IMG/VR virus record: IMGVR_UViG_2049941000_000086
DNA from: an uncultured virus (IMG/VR IMGVR_UViG_2049941000_000086)
Lineage: Duplodnaviria > Heunggongvirae > Uroviricota > Caudoviricetes
Length of the DNA stretch: 64,000 nt
Reading direction: 5' to 3' (one strand)
The notes below the pieces were generated by a model. That model saw only the letters and a list, made by a program, of their open reading frames with translations, was not told the DNA's origin and ran no database searches. Positions 45,070 through 63,819 of this stretch are shown piece by piece (within the stretch, counting starts at the first letter, position 1; every line of letters starts with the position of its first letter). The translations under genes and the position numbers were made by a program.

Positions 45070-46134
45070 TCAGGAAAAGAAGCTGCCTAGGACGTCGTCT
45101 TCGTCGTCGGGCTTAATGGTTACCGCTTCCTTCACCGGCTCAAAGGCCACGTCCTGCGCGGTCGGCTCTGCGGATTCCTTCTTGGGTCGTCCGCGTCCCT
45201 TCTTCACCTGCTGGTCAGCCTCGACCGAGGCTTCGCCGTCCACCGTTCCTTCCGTGTCCGAAGGGTTAATCTGGACGCTCTGCTCCCTAATCTCCCCGGT
45301 TCCGGGGTCCACGTTCATCACGTCGAAGGAAGCGAGGGCTTCCGCGTCCTTGGCCTCCTCGTCCTCGCGCTCAAGGACCGTGTCGATGTTGGTGATGGCG
45401 CGGAGCTGGACGTAGCCGCTGTTCAGCAGACGGCGAATGACCGTCTTTTTCATCATGGTCTCGGTGGCCGAATACCACGGGCTTTTCTTCTTAAGCCGCT
45501 CCGCCTCCTCCGGGCTGAGGTCGCCGCTGATAAGCTGGCGGTATTTGGAACGGTCGAAAGTCTTGGAGTACTGCTCGGCGTGATCGAGAATTGCGCCGAG
45601 GCTCATGTACTCAGAGCGGAAGAAGCCGTCCTTTTTCTCAACGTAGGCGTAGTAGCCGATGATGGGATGCTGCTCCGCTTCCTCGTCCGTGGCGTAGATG
45701 GAGAAGTCAAACTCCGGGCGCTTCGTCCGGCGGTTGCGTCCGACGTACTCTCCCTCACGAATTTCCACGCAGTCCATGTCGGCCACGTCGCCGCCCGCCA
45801 TCGCCATTGCGATGAGACCCTTGTATGAAATCTGGAAGCTGGCAGTCCCGGCGTAAGGAACGACATAATAGCCCATGCCGAGCATGAGACCCATGCCCTC
45901 GCCCCGGAGAGCCGCCGCCACGATGGAGGCGGGATTGCAGTTCTGGAGTTCCGTGCTGGAAACCACAAGGGAAATCAGGCTCCCGGTCAGACGGGCGGCG
46001 CTTTTGGCGTCCGGCGTGGCTTTCTTAATCATGCCCTGGAGGGCGTTGCCCTGAATGGCAACGGAGAACTTTTCCTGCTTGTTTACGATAGCGCCATTTC
46101 CGCTCGTGGTAAGCGCGTTGTTAGGTCTAGCCAA
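45070..46134 (-). CDS. recT: RecT-family recombinase
   Basis: CNPASI, YVVPY..FQISYKGL, MMKKTVIRRLL. Confidence 0.9.
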   Translation of the reverse strand: MARPNNALTTSGNGAIVNKQEKFSVAIQGNALQGMIKKATPDAKSAARLTGSLISLVVSSTELQNCNPASIVAAALRGEGMGLMLGMGYYVVPYAGTASFQISYKGLIAMAMAGGDVADMDCVEIREGEYVGRNRRTKRPEFDFSIYATDEEAEQHPIIGYYAYVEKKDGFFRSEYMSLGAILDHAEQYSKTFDRSKYRQLISGDLSPEEAERLKKKSPWYSATETMMKKTVIRRLLNSGYVQLRAITNIDTVLEREDEEAKDAEALASFDVMNVDPGTGEIREQSVQINPSDTEGTVDGEASVEADQQVKKGRGRPKKESAEPTAQDVAFEPVKEAVTIKPDDEDDVLGSFFS

Positions 46135-48885: not shown

Positions 48886-49533
48886 TCAAAACCGTATCGG
48901 TGCTCCGGGGCGCTTCCCCGTCTGTACCGATTCCCAAAATTCTTCTTCCTGCTGAAGTAGCCACGCGAGATCAGCTTCATGCTCGCTGCGTTCGATAACG
49001 AATGCGTCCTTCAGGGTGATATCCCCGTTCATGTGCCACAGGGCCGGTTGCAGTACCACAAAGTCCCATCCGGTCGCAAGCAGTTGGTGGATGCACTGGC
49101 AGTAATACGCTTGAGGTATTTGACCGTCCCACTCTCTCCATGCCTCCCGGCTGTTTGGGGCAGAGGTCTTAATCTCCAAAATTCCGTTCCGACCGTCAGA
49201 AGATGTAATCTGCCCGTCAAGCGTCGCAAACAGCCAGGGCCGTTCCTCCTGATACAGAATGTCGTAGGGGTGGTACTCAATCCCGTATTCCGGGTGGAGG
49301 GCGGCGTAGAAGCCTCTCACAGCGGCCTCCATCAAATGCCCTCGTCCAACGTAATCCTTGCCGCTGATATCCTTCCGTTCCCTGCGCCCGGTGTGGATTT
49401 CCCAAAGTTCGTTTTTGGTCATCCACTTGGACATCCCGCAGACCGCCGCCGCCTCTGAAGCGCCCAACCCCCGCTCTGCTCGTCCCGCCAGCCAGGATGC
49501 CCGGTCAGGGTAACTAATTCGTTGGAGTGCCAT
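48886..49533 (-). CDS. YqaJ-like exonuclease
   Basis: GLGASEAAAVCG, ATLDG, LEIKT, YYCQCIHQL. Confidence 0.92.
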   Translation of the reverse strand: MALQRISYPDRASWLAGRAERGLGASEAAAVCGMSKWMTKNELWEIHTGRRERKDISGKDYVGRGHLMEAAVRGFYAALHPEYGIEYHPYDILYQEERPWLFATLDGQITSSDGRNGILEIKTSAPNSREAWREWDGQIPQAYYCQCIHQLLATGWDFVVLQPALWHMNGDITLKDAFVIERSEHEADLAWLLQQEEEFWESVQTGKRPGAPIRF

Positions 49534-50177
49534 TACGCCTGCATCACGTCAACGAGGTGGTAGCGCCCGTAGCCGCTGGTCCGCCCGCTGCCGATACCGA
49601 GACCGAATCCGGCGAGGTTGATGAAGCTGCAAAGTTGGTCGAGGCTGTAAACGTGGTCGGTGTAGTCCATCTTGAAGACGGCTTTCCAGCCGGAGAAGTG
49701 GCTGAGGCGCGTAGTGATGGGGGCACCGCGCTTCGGGGACATGAGGGTTTCCTCCAGCGTCCACTTGGCGAATGTGATGGGCACCAGGTTCCGCATCGCC
49801 ACGATGTTCACGGCGTTATCGACCTTCGTGGCGTACTTGTCGATCTCATTGCGGACGACGGCCTGACCGAAGGACTTCTTCAAACCGAAAGCGGAAATGC
49901 AGGGGGCGTTGTCTTTCAGCAGGGACTTGAGCATGGCTTCGTCACAGTCCTTGTAGGTGTCGGTGGTGGGCAGATCGTCCCGCCAGTGAATCGCGGTGAT
50001 GATGTCCTCCCAGGGGTTCGGGACTTCCCGGACCTTCTTGCGGTCGTCAGCCATCAGAGCGCGGCGATTCCGGGCGTTCATCTTGTTCAGGACGAGATCG
50101 CCGTCACCTTCGATGGTGATGATTGCGTGCTTGATCTTGATGGGTTCGATTTCGAGAATGTTGGCGTCCTTTTTCAT
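49533..50177 (-). CDS. solo RAMP/Cas7-like protein (Vipr-like effector candidate)
   Basis: ITIEGDGDLVL first strand, PCISAFGLKKS (cf. PxIPxSSLKG), C-terminal Gly loop AGFGLGIGSGRTSGYGRY. Confidence 0.75.
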   Translation of the reverse strand: MKKDANILEIEPIKIKHAIITIEGDGDLVLNKMNARNRRALMADDRKKVREVPNPWEDIITAIHWRDDLPTTDTYKDCDEAMLKSLLKDNAPCISAFGLKKSFGQAVVRNEIDKYATKVDNAVNIVAMRNLVPITFAKWTLEETLMSPKRGAPITTRLSHFSGWKAVFKMDYTDHVYSLDQLCSFINLAGFGLGIGSGRTSGYGRYHLVDVMQA

Positions 50178-50210
50178 GGTTTGCCGTTCTCCCTTTCTGA
50201 TTTAGAATTG

Positions 50211-50953
50211 CGCTCATGGGCGCGAGAATGACCTGTAATGTTGTGTCCTGTGCTATAAGGAACTGTTGTTGCTAGTAGTATTCCTTTGTATCCAGCAGTG
50301 TGTATATGGCGTTACAGGCCATTCTCCCGCCCGTGGGCGGTGTCCCCGGTCATCGTCGAAAGCTCGATGTTTTGTCATGCTGCGTTCTGTCCTCTGCCGA
50401 AGTGACATAGGCAAAAGTCAACTGTCTGCTGCGATTCCGTATCGTGCTTGGAGAGCATCAAGCCCTCGACGATGACCGGGGCGGTGATGTTTGTTCCGGG
50501 TTATGCTGTATTGTTCTGGTCTATCGCGTAATGACTTGTGCTGTGCTTTACTTTATTTTTCTGTACGGTCTGTGGTCGCTCCAGAGAGCGCCGGGAAAGG
50601 TTCTACCTTCTGTTATAGTGTGCTATCGTATAGTCTTGTCTTATAACCTGTTGTGAATTGACAAGTCCGCTGTTGCCATGATTGATACTGTTGAAAGTGA
50701 ATTTGTGATTTGAAGGGAGAGCCCTTCCCGGTGTCCTCTGTTTTGTGCTGTAATGCAGGATAGTAAAGCGTTCTCGGCTGTTACGTTCTGATTTGTACCG
50801 AAGTGCGATGCGCTTGCACGGCGAGTGCGCGGAACGCTCGTTTTGATTTATAGTGTGTTGTTATGTCTCACGCTGTTATTTCGTGAGTAAAGGTGTTCAA
50901 TCCGTTTTTGCAGGATTATTTGTTGGGAGCCGAACGCTCCGCGCACTCGCCGT
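50211..50953 (-). ncRNA. guide-RNA-like array: four ~27-30-bp stems and six tracts of NN+ACA-like pentamers
   Basis: Inverted repeats 50211-40/50310-39, 50344-72/50453-81, 50584-610/50712-38, 50818-44/50927-53; YGT-NN periodicity on the + strand; strand inferred from the flanking genes. Confidence 0.8.
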
Positions 50954-50959
50954 CAGAGT

Positions 50960-51466
50960 TCACGCCGTCTTGGATAGTTCCTCCACCGCCTCAATCAGCC
51001 GGGTCAGTTCCGCCCGGTCTTTGAGGATGCTGTATTTTCGCTGAAAAGCCAGCAGTTCACTCAGGGCTGATTGGAGAAGCCGCTGATATTCGTCGTCGTT
51101 GCGGACGGTGAATTCGATGGACCTGTACCCACGTTCCTCCTCGTTGCTTTCGGAATCAACGCCGCCGGACAGGTGGAATATCCTGACGGGTTCTGATACT
51201 TCGTCGTCGCTTTCTGCCGTTCGGATAATCAGGTGGTGGACGATGGTTCTTGCTTCCTGCTTGCGCCACTTTTCGGCGGCGGCATCGTTGTCCCATGTGA
51301 AGCACTTGTGAAGCTCCGTCGCTTCGTCCCGCGCTTTCTCTACGATTTGCTCCGGCGTTGCAGTGTCACCGATGCTTTTGATTTCCCGATAGACGCCCTG
51401 TGCGTTCGCTCCGTGGAACAGGCACTCAAAGCGCGGGTCCCAGCTCGCTATCAGTTCTCCCCTCAC
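50960..51466 (-). CDS. hypothetical protein upstream of the array (accessory candidate)
   Basis: TPEQIVEKARD..LHKCFTWDNDAAAEKWRKQEAR motif; GGAGG RBS. Confidence 0.75.
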   Translation of the reverse strand: MRGELIASWDPRFECLFHGANAQGVYREIKSIGDTATPEQIVEKARDEATELHKCFTWDNDAAAEKWRKQEARTIVHHLIIRTAESDDEVSEPVRIFHLSGGVDSESNEEERGYRSIEFTVRNDDEYQRLLQSALSELLAFQRKYSILKDRAELTRLIEAVEELSKTA

Positions 51467-51686
51467 TTTCTTCCTCCTTCTGAATCAGCCGATACCTGGC
51501 GTACCGGCAAGTATCGCCGTCGCTGTTCTTTCCTTCTTCCATCGTGGTGACGATGTTGTGGCCGAGCCTTTTCAAGTCGTAAATTCTTCCGGAAAGTCTG
51601 GTGCAACGAAAATGCTGGATGGCTTCCCAGCTCGTGATGCTTCCGTGCTCCTGAAGGTAGGCCAGGATCTTTTCGCTGTCGCTCAT
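51426..51686 (-). CDS. winged-HTH protein (HTH_39-like)
   Basis: ILAYL..GSITSWEA..CTRLSGRIYDLK..G..I..YARYRL. Confidence 0.75.
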   Translation of the reverse strand: MSDSEKILAYLQEHGSITSWEAIQHFRCTRLSGRIYDLKRLGHNIVTTMEEGKNSDGDTCRYARYRLIQKEEESEGRTDSELGPAL

Positions 51687-52306
51687 GCTGTCACCTCCAA
51701 TTTCTTCGCCGCCGATCTTTCCCGGTCCTTCGCCCGGATTTCCTCCCGGTGCTTCTCCCGCCATCGCCGCTTGTATTCCCTTATCTGCTCCTTGTGAGTG
51801 AGGCGGTACATTGCCCGGTAGGCAGCTATCTCGTCCTTGTGTTCCTCCGCATATCGGCGGAACCGTTCGGCGTACTGCTCCTTGTTTGCCTCGTAGTGCG
51901 CCTTGTGGTACTCCGCCAGTTCTTCCCGGTGGGTCTCGCGGTAAGTACGACCTCGCTCTTTCTCTTTCTCAGGTTCAGCTTCGCGCACTGCCTTTGCCCG
52001 CTCAAGCACGGTCTCACGATTGGCGGCGTACCATTCACGATGCTTGGCATTGATTTCCTCGCGGTGGGCTGCACGGTAGGCTTTCTTCTTCTCGTGGATC
52101 TCTTCCCGGTGATCGTTGTGATACTTCCGTGAGCGGAGCGCCGCTTTCGCCGCCTTGGGTTCTCTCCGCTCCTGGCGGATCTCCCAGTCCATTTGCCTCG
52201 CGGCTTCGTACTCTTCCCGGTCAAAGGCGAGCTGCCCTTCGATTTCCGCATCGTATGCCGCCAGTTCTTCCAGTTCTTCCGGGGTAAATGGGATTAAGGC
52301 ACTCAA
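51683..52306 (-). CDS. hypothetical protein with YxxxHREE helical repeats
   Basis: Repeated Y/W-x-x-x-H/N-R/K-E units. Confidence 0.65.
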   Translation of the reverse strand: MSALIPFTPEELEELAAYDAEIEGQLAFDREEYEAARQMDWEIRQERREPKAAKAALRSRKYHNDHREEIHEKKKAYRAAHREEINAKHREWYAANRETVLERAKAVREAEPEKEKERGRTYRETHREELAEYHKAHYEANKEQYAERFRRYAEEHKDEIAAYRAMYRLTHKEQIREYKRRWREKHREEIRAKDRERSAAKKLEVTA

Positions 52307-52464
52307 CCAAGAATCACCACCCCTCGGACGATCATCACCGCCGCAAACAGGAGCAGCCCCCACACGCCGCCGCAGATGNNNNNNNNNNNNNNNNNNNNNN
52401 NNNNNNNNNNNNNNNNNNNNNNNNNNNNNNNNNCATCAATGATGCGCTCTTCTTTGTCATTCAT
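52303..52464 (-). CDS. small membrane protein (N gap)
   Basis: Hydrophobic C-terminus; coupled to its neighbours. Confidence 0.45.
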   Translation of the reverse strand: MNDKEERIIDXXXXXXXXXXXXXXXXXXXICGGVWGLLLFAAVMIVRGVVILG

Positions 52465-53024
52465 TGCGCCACCGCCCTTGCTACCGCCGTCTTGGTGACG
52501 CGCCCTGCGGGGAAATCGTACCGGCGCTTCACGGTTCGTGGGTTCACACCGAGCCATTCCGCGNNNNNNNNNNTTTCGGAGTGAAGAATCAATTCACGCC
52601 CCGGAAATGCTCTATCAAGGCTGGCGAGCGCATCGTGAAATCCGGCGAACTTGCTGACGTCCACGTTTCTTTCTTTGCAAGGTTCTCTTGGTGATTGCGG
52701 CTTTCTGGCGCTTGGGTCTGGTATGAGACCCATTTTCATGGCGTGACGGACGTTTTCACTCGGCGTTACCCATTCCAGATTTGACACATTGTTATGGTCC
52801 TTAACGCCATCAATGTGGTTGACTTGCGGCTTGTTCTCCGGGTTTGGAATAAAGGCTTCGGCGACAAGACGATGAATGCCCTCCATCTTTATCCCGTCCC
52901 ATACAGTCCGGTATCCGCGCCGCCATCCAATAGTGGTCTCCGCTTCTACACCGTAAACGAGCTTTCTCACGGTCCCGTCTTCGTAAACCCGAAGTCTGTC
53001 TCCGCGCATGTCCTTGTATCTCAC
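52461..53024 (-). CDS. HNH endonuclease fused to an HTH-like C-terminus
   Basis: [40 protein letters not shown]. Confidence 0.75.
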
Positions 53025-54357: not shown

Positions 54358-55554
54358 TTGCGTCGCTTGAAAGGTGGATTGTCGTTGGTCTGTATCAAAT
54401 GCGGGGCCGAAGTCGCTGATGCTCCATTCTGCGGTAAGTGCGGTGCAAGGCAAGAAAGAGTCGTGCCTAAATCCCGTGGCTTGAAAAAGCGTGGCAACGG
54501 CCAGGGTTGCGTTTACAAACTTCCGAACGGGAAGTATCAAGCTATCGTCACGCGGGGGTACGTTTTGGACGAGAACGGTAAGCGTCATTTGAGACGCCGG
54601 ACCAAGGTGTTTGACAAAAAGAAAGACGCTATCCTTGCTTTGCCAGACCTGATGCGTGAACGCCAATCCGAAACAGTACGTCTCTGGACGTTCAAGGAAG
54701 TATTCGATAAATGGATACCAACGCACAAGGCAGGAAAGTCTACCATAGGCAATTACAGCGCCGCCGTCAAATACTTTGACACTTTGTTCTTTGTCCCGTT
54801 TGCTGATATAGACATTGACGACTTGCAGGAGTGCATAGACGATTGCCCACGAGGGCGAAGGACAAAGGAAAACATGAGAGCTTGCGCAGGACTGATGTAT
54901 AAGTTTGCCATCCCGCGCCATGCCACGCGAGATAACCTAAACCTATCGGAATACCTGTCCGTTGACGGGGACGCTGCGGCACACCGGAGTTCGTTTGATG
55001 ACGCTCAGATACGTCAGATAATCAAAGCGGCGCAGAGCGGAACTGTACCCTACGCCGAAGAAGTTATGTGCTTGGTCTTCCTTGGATTTCGACCGTCAGA
55101 GTTTCTGGAACTCACCGATGAGAGCTACAACAAAGAAAAGAGGTGCCTTACGGGTGGAGCGAAGACAGAAGCCGGTAAGGGTCGAACTGTGACGGTCTCT
55201 CCTTTAATTCTGTCGTTCGTCGAATCAAGGGCTGAGAGCAAAGGTCCGCTATTCAGAAACCCGGATGGGAAAACTTGGGGGCTGAAGCACTTTACGGAGA
55301 AAGCCTTTTACCCGGCTCTTGAAGCCATTGGGATCGAGAACCCTATCGTCACCATCGGAGGAGGACTCAAACGCCATAAATATACCCCCCACTCCTGCCG
55401 ACACACCTTTGCCACATTGATGAAGAAGGTAGAAGGTGCGGAGAAAGACAAGTTGGAACTGATGGGGCACACGTCCGGCGAAATGCTCCGATACTACCAG
55501 GATGTTGGCGTGGAAGACCTCCGGAAAATCACCGACAACCTTTGGAAAGCCTGA
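54358..55554 (+). CDS. tyrosine integrase with N-terminal zinc ribbon (likely start TTG ~54385)
   Basis: CxxC..CxxC, RGNGQG arm-binding motif, GFRPSE, KTEAG, HSCRHT, MGH..YY. Confidence 0.93.
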   Translation: MRRLKGGLSLVCIKCGAEVADAPFCGKCGARQERVVPKSRGLKKRGNGQGCVYKLPNGKYQAIVTRGYVLDENGKRHLRRRTKVFDKKKDAILALPDLMRERQSETVRLWTFKEVFDKWIPTHKAGKSTIGNYSAAVKYFDTLFFVPFADIDIDDLQECIDDCPRGRRTKENMRACAGLMYKFAIPRHATRDNLNLSEYLSVDGDAAAHRSSFDDAQIRQIIKAAQSGTVPYAEEVMCLVFLGFRPSEFLELTDESYNKEKRCLTGGAKTEAGKGRTVTVSPLILSFVESRAESKGPLFRNPDGKTWGLKHFTEKAFYPALEAIGIENPIVTIGGGLKRHKYTPHSCRHTFATLMKKVEGAEKDKLELMGHTSGEMLRYYQDVGVEDLRKITDNLWKA

Positions 55555-61457: not shown

Positions 61458-61610
61458 TGGTGCCGAGGGGAGGATTTGAACCCCCACGGTTGAACGACAC
61501 TTCATCCGGTAGCAGATATGGATTGTACTTCTCCACAGCTTGTCAGTGCCAGCACTTCAACTTAGTCTCCGTGTCGTCTGCTCGCTTTTTCCGCATTAAG
61601 CTACCTCGGC
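61458..61610 (-). ncRNA. tRNA-like RNA whose anticodon arm is replaced by a long insertion; CCA end
   Basis: GCCGAGG/CCTCGGC-A-CCA, D and T arms, GACGACAC/GTGTCGTT stem enclosing ~60 nt. Confidence 0.7.
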
Positions 61611-62724: not shown

Positions 62725-62826
62725 TTGGTTTCACTCCTTTCCGTGTGTTTCGGTATTCCGCTGCTCTTCAGGCGGGAACCGTTTACGCTTAAAGTCTAGC
62801 ACACGCCTTTGTACTCCGTAAGATTT

Positions 62827-62906
62827 CGGGGCGGGGTGGCCTCGAACCACCGGGGGATCACTGTCCCCAGCGACGCATCGCCGTACTTCCCTGTACCACC
62901 GCCCCG
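62827..62906 (-). ncRNA. tRNA-like element with 8-bp acceptor stem, long variable arm and collapsed anticodon loop
   Basis: CGGGGCGG/CCGCCCCG, GTAC/GTAC, GCGA TGCG TCGC, GGGGA/TCCCC, GGTGG TTCGAGG CCACC. Confidence 0.6.
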
Positions 62907-62998: not shown

Positions 62999-63376
62999 CT
63001 ACTTCTGATAGGTTCCGAGGACGTTCCGCTCCGCCCGATCCTCCGCCCTTTTGTTCATCCACATGAGGGCTTCCTCGATGTGCGTCAGGGCGCAGGCGTT
63101 TTCCCGGCAGGCAAACTCTCCGGCCTGAAACGCTTTCAGCCGGTCACGGACGATTTCCAAAAGGTCTCCGTCCAGTACACCAGTCCGCGCATCAGGGTCA
63201 GTCCTCGCGCCCTTCTGAAACCTGATTTGTTCGCTGGTCACACTACCGCCGCCAGTTTCGGTGCTGCGCCACATCAACACCGTATAGTCGTGGTACGCTC
63301 CGCCGGGGCCGATCTCCCCTTCACGGAAGACTTCGTTCAGATTGTTTCTCTTCTGAATCGTCGAAAGTTTTTCCAT
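62999..63376 (-). CDS. tad1: Thoeris anti-defence 1 signal-sponge protein
   Basis: [58 protein letters not shown], as recalled for Clostridium Tad1. Confidence 0.88.
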
Positions 63377-63378
63377 CG

Positions 63379-63819
63379 TTATTCTCCCTCCTTTTTTACG
63401 GTAATCTTCGGCTCCGTCCCCCAAATGTGAACGGGGTCTGCGTCAACCGTCCAGCTCTCCCGTTTGTCCTCCGGAAGCTGGTGCCAGAAGAAGTTGCGGA
63501 TGACCGAGTACATATCAAACGCCACCTGAACATCCTCTGTCTTACGGAAATGCTCAAGGTTGCCACCGGATGCGGCTCGCATCGCCAGTTCAAGCATCTC
63601 CTTGCAGGCATCGCGTCTGAGTATGCGTCTGTCGAACTCCGGGTCGTCCGGCTTGTATTCATAGTTCAGCCAAGCCAGGTCTTCCGCCATGTCCCACGTC
63701 TGGCCTATGCACATCCTAGCCCACTTCTCACATACATTCTGTAACAGCCGGAGCTGCCGCTCGTTGAGCGTGATGGTGTACTTCTGCTCCGGAGGCGTCT
63801 CCGTTTTCTTTCTCGCCAT
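63379..63819 (-). CDS. hypothetical protein
   Basis: 146-aa ORF, GGGAG RBS. Confidence 0.75.

Follow-up and report, generated by a model that had tools for sequence, protein, structure and literature searches.

The 64,000-nt record IMGVR_UViG_2049941000_000086 from IMG/VR, assigned to an uncultured virus of the Caudoviricetes and termed the window when referred to at its full length, carries a locus whose genes all lie on the minus strand. In the order of transcription these are the gene for an HTH_39 winged-helix protein, the gene for a 168-residue protein and, after 782 bp of periodic DNA, the gene for a 214-residue protein (Table 1). In a preliminary description derived from the letters of this stretch, the last two genes had been noted as an accessory gene and a solo RAMP-like gene that bracket six tracts of pentamers, and the arrangement had been likened to the VIPR system. 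The gene coordinates and the six-tract anatomy are retained here as they were noted, with the distance between the genes amounting to 782 bp. The system is real: it belongs to the VIPR family, resides in a rumen prophage, uses a scaffold other than GGY and exhibits a matching change of the scaffold pocket in its RAMP protein.

According to the preprint texts, VIPR combines the minimal RAMP protein Vipr with an accessory vap gene and vrRNAs of 9–16 GGY/NN units (10.64898/2026.04.26.720920; 10.64898/2026.04.26.720927). The NN pairs are described there as reading double-stranded DNA with one base, mostly the wobble base, being skipped per unit, and the targets as residing in rival phages and satellites (10.64898/2026.04.26.720920; 10.64898/2026.04.26.720927). 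As alternative repeats, the first of these texts gives NNNGG, YNNNG and NNNNG (10.64898/2026.04.26.720920).

The 214-residue protein belongs to no Pfam family, and PHROGs offers only a weak family of unknown function. A search of PDB sequences with the single sequence returned nothing; only the family profile reached the established Vipr. Built from 67 members (alignment A1), this profile matches PDB entry 36pp_D, "SUSP1 Vipr protein", with E = 3.7e-14, the alignment spanning profile positions 61–213 of 218 and chain residues 50–188, such that the likeness to VIPR, a system that is by now in print, has a footing in sequence. The family is large: out of 2422 candidates, 2305 proteins fall at E <= 0.001, with 196 clusters at 50% identity. 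Within its glycine-rich loop G190, G194, G196, R199 and G204 are invariant or nearly so. An AlphaFold (AF2) model computed with the alignment reached a confidence (pLDDT) of 94.8, while a single-sequence model (pLDDT 28.6) was discarded. When the model was submitted to Foldseek, 75 PDB matches with E <= 0.001 were obtained, the best of them being Cmr, Csm3 and type VII Cas7 subunits at TM scores of about 0.4–0.55, i.e., type III and type VII Cas7-family proteins, in line with the RAMP fold that had been supposed. By profile and predicted structure the protein is a Vipr, that is, a minimal RAMP protein of the kind found in VIPR. Among 401 genomes from the order of genome G002, the Vipr profile matched G002 alone.

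The DNA between the accessory gene and vipr is organized into six tracts that fit fixed registers of five nucleotides, T-G-T-N-N on the plus strand and N-N-A-C-A on the gene strand; the lower coordinate of each tract in Table 1 is the start of its plus-strand register. Repeated units of 5 nt, of which three positions are fixed and two variable, thus stand beside vipr, as they do in VIPR. The fixed triplet is a different one: on the gene strand it is neither GGY nor compatible with NNNGG, YNNNG or NNNNG, and only on the opposite strand does TGT/NN fit YNNNG. In these registers the tracts contain 14–23 units, and the stretches that match targets (see below) comprise 13 and 17 units, close to the 13–18 units first estimated. 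The three scaffold columns hold 61% A, 56% C and 65% A, whereas the overall composition of the region is 34% A and 28% C. A phase-coherent ACA score of 207 was obtained for the array, whereas 2000 shuffles that preserve dinucleotides yielded 162.6 +/- 5.6 with a maximum of 183 (z = 7.9; 0/2000 reach 207), and the top three of 512 blocks into which both strands of the 64-kb window were divided are those over the array. The periodicity claimed at the outset is confirmed in this way, although plain period-5 Fourier power does not single out the array region. The best single count of CA over 18 units is 9, compared with 6.3 +/- 0.9 in the null (maximum 10; z about 3). A strict tract caller applied to both strands of the whole window reported two tracts, both of them within the array.

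Table 1. Coordinates of the genes, guide tracts and stems at the vipr locus (positions in the window; stems are given by their 5' arm on the gene strand)
Feature	Position	Strand	Remarks
vipr	49533..50177	-	Vipr-family RAMP protein, 214 aa; ORF, profile and model; G-loop GFGLGIGSGR (G190...R199)
vrRNA array	50178..50959	-	782 bp without a credible open reading frame (ORF); six NN-ACA (NN-DCA) pentamer tracts with long stems between and around them
vap-like accessory gene	50960..51466	-	168 aa without known domain; matches phrog_15946 (E = 5e-17), a family of unknown function
vr1	50839..50928	-	18 units, enclosed by stem A; 3' 13 units match HTH_39 gene 26/26
vr2	50734..50803	-	14 units, between stems A and B; best match 23/28, AAA_24 ATPase gene, L185
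vr3	50604..50718	-	23 units in register, enclosed by stem B; 0 target matches
vr4	50482..50581	-	20 units, between stems B and C; two chance-level matches only
vr5	50363..50457	-	19 units, enclosed by stem C; DNA_pol_A target, best 33/38
vr6	50229..50318	-	18 units, adjoins vipr; 0 target matches
Stem A, 5' arm	50931..50953	-	pairs with 50818-50840; 21 Watson-Crick and 2 G·U pairs on the gene strand
Stem B, 5' arm	50718..50740	-	pairs with 50582-50604; 18 Watson-Crick, 2 G·U, 3 A·C
Stem C, 5' arm	50452..50481	-	holds GAGGGCTTG; pairs with 50344-50373; 25 Watson-Crick, 3 G·U, 2 A·C
HTH_39 winged-helix gene	51426..51764	-	upstream of the module; Pfam; prophage's own homologue of the vr1 target
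YqaJ/RecE-type exonuclease gene	48886..49533	-	start overlaps vipr stop codon

Scaffold motif and pocket residues among relatives

Relatives of the window's Vipr were compared in 68 locus records, among which six are contigs represented twice and one is the twin of the window; tracts were called in all of them with one caller, for ACA and GGY motifs and on both strands. Among the 51 loci with a Vipr at least 50% identical to that of the window, the gene strand carries ACA tracts in 49, the exceptions being L013 and L185, which lack them, while neither ACA tracts on the other strand nor GGY tracts occur in any of them. The 17 distant relatives (L189–L205, 16 with about 25% Vipr identity plus L205 with 42% over 49 residues) do not contain ACA tracts on either strand, and every one carries GGY tracts on the gene strand. 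An unbiased column scan led to the identical split. The ACA scaffold that had initially been read on the gene strand of a single locus is therefore common to a clade, and periodic DNA accompanies the close as well as the distant homologues.

With regard to the proteins, SUSP1 Vipr is described as holding G1 by H17 and D177, G2 by R138 and W178, and Y3 in part by R179. We compared this pocket in SUSP1 Vipr and five GGY relatives with that of six ACA-clade proteins whose available stretch covers it. The G-loop reads G-x-G-(D/E)-W-R in the former, with G-x-G-E-W-R in L189–L205, and G-I-G-S-G-R followed by a deletion of three residues in the ACA clade. The thumb motif RYRxEF of SUSP1 and the GGY relatives is represented by R(L/Q)xxF in the clade, and a histidine in the first strand of the GGY relatives by asparagine. 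This histidine would be the equivalent of SUSP1 H17, the profile alignment with SUSP1 starting only at residue 50. D177, W178 and R138 of SUSP1 are thus replaced by S, G and L/Q, respectively. As judged from the alignment, the scaffold would depart from GGY because the clade has exchanged the residues by which SUSP1 Vipr grips G1 and G2.

The neighborhood consisting of the winged-helix-turn-helix (wHTH), vipr and vap genes is homologous across the ACA/GGY split. GGY relatives L189–L205 share with the window the protein family, a homologous vap-like gene, an HTH_39 gene upstream and arrays on the gene strand; the window's vap-like protein is 33% identical (E = 7e-18) to the protein encoded after the GGY array of L190, and in L204 the end of an HTH_39-like gene, "...RYARYFLIKN", precedes the GGY tracts and vipr. 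In the first set of loci collected, a vap-like homologue on the same strand adjoins vipr in 12 of 13 cases, with neighbors of 150–170 residues, and arrays of like kind sit between the vap-like gene and vipr in homologous loci, too. Unlike those of the window, the GGY tracts of L189–L205 are located just downstream of vipr, head-to-tail and in shifting registers (e.g., L190 2150–2365), and in this respect they are similar to the "staggered arrays" of one preprint text (10.64898/2026.04.26.720920). The gene order of the GGY relatives is vipr, array, vap-like gene, and L203 and L204 have tracts upstream of vipr as well. An extra ACA tract on the gene strand downstream of vipr was observed in L009 (5542–5641), L158 (3057–3156), L184 (3068–3132), L171 (2160–2239) and L172 (2187–2231). 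When the sister arrays of L005 and L006 are aligned, the NN positions of one tract are identical in 8 of 24 cases and the scaffold positions in 27 of 38; a second tract does not exhibit such a contrast (16/26 vs. 24/39).

A genomic-language-model preprint describes arrays with other triplets: next to Vipr-like folds it reports 5-nt arrays that group into 21 clusters (6,318 sequences), their non-canonical motifs including GAC/NN, CAC/NN, WGT/NN and TGH/NN (10.64898/2026.10.21.760802). TGH/NN is the reverse complement of the window's NN/DCA unit, and the clade described here may already be counted among these clusters. The strings "ACA", "DCA" and "RCA" are absent from the text of that preprint, its figures being outside this check, and "ACA" is likewise absent from the texts of 10.64898/2026.04.26.720920 and 10.64898/2026.10.15.759431. 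In the portions of the four VIPR preprints compared here, figures and supplements set aside, no counterpart was found to the evidence for the strand, the joint change of pocket and scaffold, the enclosure of guides by stems or the targets; as far as the non-canonical arrays are concerned, strand evidence, pocket comparison, stems and targets were likewise absent from the portions of 10.64898/2026.10.21.760802 compared.

Targets of the guides

Reading the NN dinucleotides as a gapped NNx pattern that skips the wobble base had been proposed in the preliminary description, together with protein motifs in four of the six tracts. For seeded scans, nine consecutive units per guide were written as an NNx pattern (18 specified bases) and exact matches were collected from IMG/VR. 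Their number is at least 120 for vr5, one for vr1, three for vr2, two for vr4 and zero for vr3 and vr6.

The 120 vr5 matches listed agree with the guide at 27–33 of 38 positions, and at 9–15 of the 20 positions outside the seed, where five would be expected by chance. They are mutually homologous and therefore count as a single target family. In frame, the targets encode ...S(N/A)IE(G/A)RVLAWLAGEQWK.... (in 40 of the matches listed and the six best among them). We take this stretch to be motif A of family-A polymerases. The best among the matches listed is found in L108 (33/38, with 32/34 for units 2–18), in a gene recognized as DNA_pol_A (E = 9e-14), and a looser pattern led to one further polymerase (32/38). 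The prophage itself replicates via a replisome organizer and a loader, no DNA_pol_A is present among its scanned proteins, and the best match of vr5 within the window amounts to 22/38.

For vr1 the sole seed match stems from L136, a 98-kb virus rated complete. The guide agrees with it at 29 of 36 positions; of the 18 positions outside the seed, 11 agree (p = 0.0012). The 13 units at its 3' end, which match perfectly, encode ...GDPTRYARYTLNK, with which an HTH_39 protein (E = 2e-17) ends, while the corresponding site in the prophage's own HTH_39 gene (51480–51533) matches at 22 of 36 positions only. The seed matches of vr4 and vr2 are chance matches by extension (6/22 and 3/10 outside the seed, respectively). 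Matches above those of shuffled guides were not seen in the window itself, the first loci collected gave nothing, and neither did three host-like genomes when searched with the vr4 pattern at up to three mismatches. A Vipr of the window's family was not found in target viruses G005 and G006.

An unseeded scan of 73 distinct guides of the clade against 485 kb, with skips of 0, 1, 2 and 4 bases, added three pairs, all of them in frame. Guide vr2 matches the AAA_24 ATPase gene of the related phage L185, while a gene of the metallo-beta-lactamase fold in the sibling phage L186 is matched by a guide of L171 (2160; 26/32) and by a guide of L172 (2187; 17/18). The latter spells DTELIKWRF, which is the rival's allele, the allele of L172 itself being DCNLIKWRF. 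Expected counts for the three best skip-1 matches range from 0.003 to 0.06, calculated for 73 guides and all scanned DNA under a uniform base model. One-base-skip matches are accordingly available for vr5, vr1, the weaker vr2 and two guides of relatives, and all five guide-target pairs are in frame and skip the wobble position. Since the skipped base falls on the wobble position in coding regions, a synonymous change would not free the target, as far as sequence matches tell. The gapped reading as such has therefore found its counterparts in genes of other phages, whereas the claim of motifs in four tracts is narrowed to two guides with strong support (vr5 and vr1) and a weakly supported vr2, with none for vr3, vr4 and vr6. 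Going by these matches, the guides appear to be directed at replication and regulatory genes of other phages, namely those for a family-A DNA polymerase, an HTH_39 regulator and an AAA_24 ATPase, and the prophage appears either to lack these target genes or to possess mismatched alleles.

Stems, guide strand and competing explanations

The tracts of the window are alternately enclosed by a long stem and placed between two stems (Table 1), and the same alternation is evident in L001 and L155. Stem B has a competing local hairpin, and vr6 is flanked by a 10-bp stem, spotted by eye, next to two local hairpins. At the inner end of many stems, where the G·U pairs are located, the 5' arm reads RGGGCTTG and the 3' arm CAAGYYC. 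Between loci the stem sequences vary while pairing is kept, each of the 14 positions tabulated from the loop featuring at least four pair types. L005 and L006 have sister arrays whose stem arms agree at 136/152 aligned bases (89%), as compared with 57% (192/336), with insertions and deletions, for the intervening DNA.

These stems bear on the strand of the guide. In 36 distinct stems that frame tracts, each with 16 or more Watson-Crick pairs and some of them related, 103 G·U pairs stand against 33 A·C oppositions on the gene strand (binomial p = 1.4e-9). Furthermore, of 25 tracts, 23 end no more than 9 nt from the 3' arm and 10 start no more than 9 nt from the 5' arm. This order of tract and 3' arm can be said to resemble the published order of tract and 3' structure, with a long-range stem in the place of the pseudoknot tail described for type II. 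From the excess of G·U over A·C in the flanking stems, the position of the tracts and the GGY relatives, we infer that the guide RNA is probably encoded on the gene strand.

Several observations nevertheless weigh against this assignment, and they are best considered together with the explanation that they favor. It accepts a VIPR system and has the vrRNAs transcribed from the plus strand, divergently from vipr, with TGT/NN as an xGY/NN relative of GGY/NN and guides complementary to the coding strand and to the target mRNA. TGT shares two of three positions with GGY, i.e., G2 and Y3, and fits motifs printed in the preprint texts, YNNNG in the first of them as well as WGT/NN and TGH/NN (10.64898/2026.10.21.760802). 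The arginine equivalent to R179, the Y3 contact of SUSP1, is kept in the ACA clade. All five guides with targets (vr1, vr2, vr5 and those of L171 and L172) are in mRNA sense when read on the gene strand and hence antisense on the plus strand, a bias that DNA binding as published would not predict; five cases are few. A promoter-like site is present near the array end at 50181–50208 (+), one having been found and 1.4 being expected, and the folding energy of whole arrays, summed over 12 of them, is lower for the antisense than for the gene strand (-1783 vs. -1703 kcal/mol). The last point fails as a test of the strand, however, because the antisense is rich in G and U and its tracts pair with themselves (54 G·U pairs). 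On the plus strand, moreover, the numerous G·U positions of the tract-framing stems become mismatches, the G2 contacts W178 and R138 would have been replaced even though G2 stayed, and the tracts would adjoin the wrong arm, namely that which is 3' on the gene strand. Finally, the motif in RNA sense is on the vipr strand in 17 of 17 GGY relatives with the same wHTH, vipr and vap neighborhood. We therefore regard transcription of the guides from the plus strand as unlikely.

It is very improbable that the guides direct a RAMP filament to RNA in the manner of type III CRISPR systems instead of DNA. The nearest solved folds are indeed Csm3 and Cmr4-type subunits of RNA-targeting complexes, and the polarity of the guides relative to the target mRNA is uniform (5/5). 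RNA from the gene strand, however, has the same sense as the target mRNA; its pairing partner would be the template strand of the DNA, and pairing with the mRNA is precluded. In addition, SUSP1 Vipr, the nearest sequence relative of known mechanism, is described as binding double-stranded DNA, and Cas10, Csm or Cmr partners were not seen among the 51 window proteins scanned. That the periodic DNA is a protein-binding or replication element (iterons, bent DNA) with phage matches by chance might be suggested by its location in a replication and recombination module (RecT, SSB, replisome organizer, YqaJ), its degenerate scaffold and the half of the guides that lack a match, but this is hardly credible, as the array always lies beside a Vipr homologue and switches its motif along with the protein pocket, the stems co-vary with a G·U bias, one seed has at least 120 matches as opposed to 0–3 for the five others, and the matches far exceed expectation and in five of five cases are in frame and skip the wobble base.

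Some further points also count against a guide array with gene-strand NN-ACA units and wobble-skipping targets. The scaffold is weak, exact ACA being present in 30 of 112 units and a CA ending in 45 of 112. For three of six guides (vr3, vr4 and vr6) the seed scans of IMG/VR gave no target. A perfect target of vr5 was not found, the best matches being 32–33/38, and the strict 17-unit pattern of this guide had no match in metagenome contigs. In the unseeded scan, guides of at least 12 units reached top identities of 0.82 and 0.81 at skip 1 and of 0.75–0.77 at skips 0, 2 and 4, a small margin that favors skip 1 only mildly. In the two target genomes found with seeds, skip 1 scores above skips 0 and 2 as well as above each of 200 shuffled guides; this result is not independent because the genomes were found with skip-1 seeds. 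As to expression, four runs labelled as RNA were compared with the locus. Three of them are probably DNA and cover protein genes only. The one on record as RNA provided a single contig of 233 nt (depth 2.4; 50148–50380) that spans vr6 and its flanks; it may be DNA carry-over, and contigs give neither strand nor ends. All in all, we consider a prophage-borne VIPR system with gene-strand (NN-ACA)n guides to be likely.

Genomic surroundings, related systems and implications

The surroundings of the module constitute the early region of a prophage and feature an integrase (54358–55551), a repressor-like helix-turn-helix protein, RecT, SSB, a replisome organizer, a DnaC/IstB-like loader and a C5 methylase in addition to the YqaJ-type gene, and the module is thus phage-carried. 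DNA of the window recurs in bovine gut metagenome runs and is identical in one IMG/VR contig. A YqaJ-type homologue is located 3' of vipr in L003 and L006 as well and was not detected after vipr in the remaining loci with sufficient downstream DNA. The gene is probably that of a phage recombination nuclease partnering RecT (45073–46134) and as such outside the vipr module. It had been stated earlier that the locus has no CRISPR repeats, cas1 or nuclease. The CRISPR part of this statement stands: a Pfam scan of 51 window proteins revealed no Cas family, and Rfam reported only tRNAs in the 64 kb, no CRISPR repeat family and, inside the array, neither hammerhead nor any other family. The repeat-spacer array and further cas genes typical of class 1 CRISPR-Cas are accordingly missing from the locus. 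The part on the nuclease does not stand as worded; since the YqaJ/RecE-type gene abuts the 3' end of vipr, it holds for the conserved module only. In a protein atlas, the vap-like protein falls into unnamed viral clusters only, one of them auto-named DUF4494 without Pfam support, and a PDB sequence search with it returned nothing meaningful. Promoter and terminator scans of the locus remained at background level.

Some observations concern other parts of the window. A 141-residue ORF at 63002–63424 (-) matches the Pfam Acb2/Tad1 hairpin domain (E = 4.5e-7, 30.4 bits at a cut-off of 27). Its product may act as a sponge-like anti-CBASS or anti-Thoeris protein, and it lies beyond the integrase-bounded end of the prophage, close to a tRNA cluster. 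An Rfam tRNA call is stretched across 150 nt (61461–61610, -, model positions 1–71), which suggests an insertion or intron. ARAGORN instead reports a tRNA-Pro at 62826–62906, and tRNAs for Gln and Gly were found by both programs. Masked runs of N (X in the translations) break genes just upstream of the locus at about 52380–52560, one of which has an HNH-like motif by eye. A second short integrase-family ORF (167 residues, 1151–1651, +; Phage_integrase, E = 3e-17) is encoded at the far window end.

The closest described counterpart is VIPR type II from Escherichia phage SUSP1 and a Pseudomonas fulva prophage, as far as the preprint texts cover it. Both feature a single RAMP protein, related by profile, with a small accessory gene adjoining; both are phage-carried and devoid of cas genes and CRISPR arrays; and both have 5-nt units of three fixed and two variable positions, 13–17 matching units per guide, a one-base skip on the wobble position and targets in other mobile elements. 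Unlike type II, the window has ACA (DCA) as the fixed triplet in place of GGY and differs in the residues that grip G1 and G2 in SUSP1, its array is located between the vap-like gene and vipr, its tracts are arranged inside and between stems of 23–30 bp as opposed to a pseudoknotted 3' tail, and it is known from sequence alone. With the backbone subunits of Class 1 CRISPR systems (the Cas7 family with Csm3, Cmr4 and type VII Cas7) the window shares the RAMP fold. It differs from these systems by the lack of CRISPR repeats, Cas10, Cas5, Cas6 and Cas1, by a periodicity of 5 instead of 6 nt, and by guides that consist of repeats and not of a contiguous spacer.

The following sequence of events can be envisaged. 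The HTH_39 gene, the vap-like gene, the array and vipr would be transcribed as an operon from the minus strand. The array RNA would hold six (NN-ACA)n guide tracts, four of them in stem-closed loops and two between stems, with three closing stems of 23–30 bp and a fourth of about 10 bp beside vr6. Individual vrRNAs would be freed once a nuclease, perhaps a double-strand RNase of the host, had cut the stems. By homology to SUSP1 Vipr, each 5-nt unit would then be bound by one Vipr protomer with the ACA triplet buried and the NN pair presented, and the NN pairs would read double-stranded DNA as NNx NNx, one target base being skipped per unit. If the published type II system is a guide, binding would silence the rival's transcription.

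As satellites and rival phages are reported to redirect canonical VIPRs via solo or decoy vrRNAs (10.64898/2026.10.15.759431, text), a more far-reaching interpretation may be offered, albeit as a speculation that we ourselves rather doubt. The clade might represent an orthogonal re-coding of VIPR in which scaffold triplet and pocket have both changed, GGY vrRNAs are unable to load, solo or decoy vrRNAs of rivals are without effect, and guides, matured from loops of G·U-rich stems by a host double-strand RNase, are tuned to rival alleles of genes shared between siblings. If this were true, the window's Vipr would not be loadable by GGY vrRNAs and would hence be immune to such decoys of satellites and rivals.

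For the family as a whole, our findings mean that VIPR can do without a GGY scaffold, as a natural clade uses a triplet free of G and has changes in three G-gripping residues. They extend the evidence for a wobble-skipping code to phages of gut and rumen Clostridia and indicate that guides tell the phage's own allele of a gene from that of a sibling. The guide-enclosing stems point to a route of maturation that is not described in the text of the VIPR preprints, and the ACA clade possibly provides a second, non-cross-talking pair of protein and guide for programmable DNA binding.

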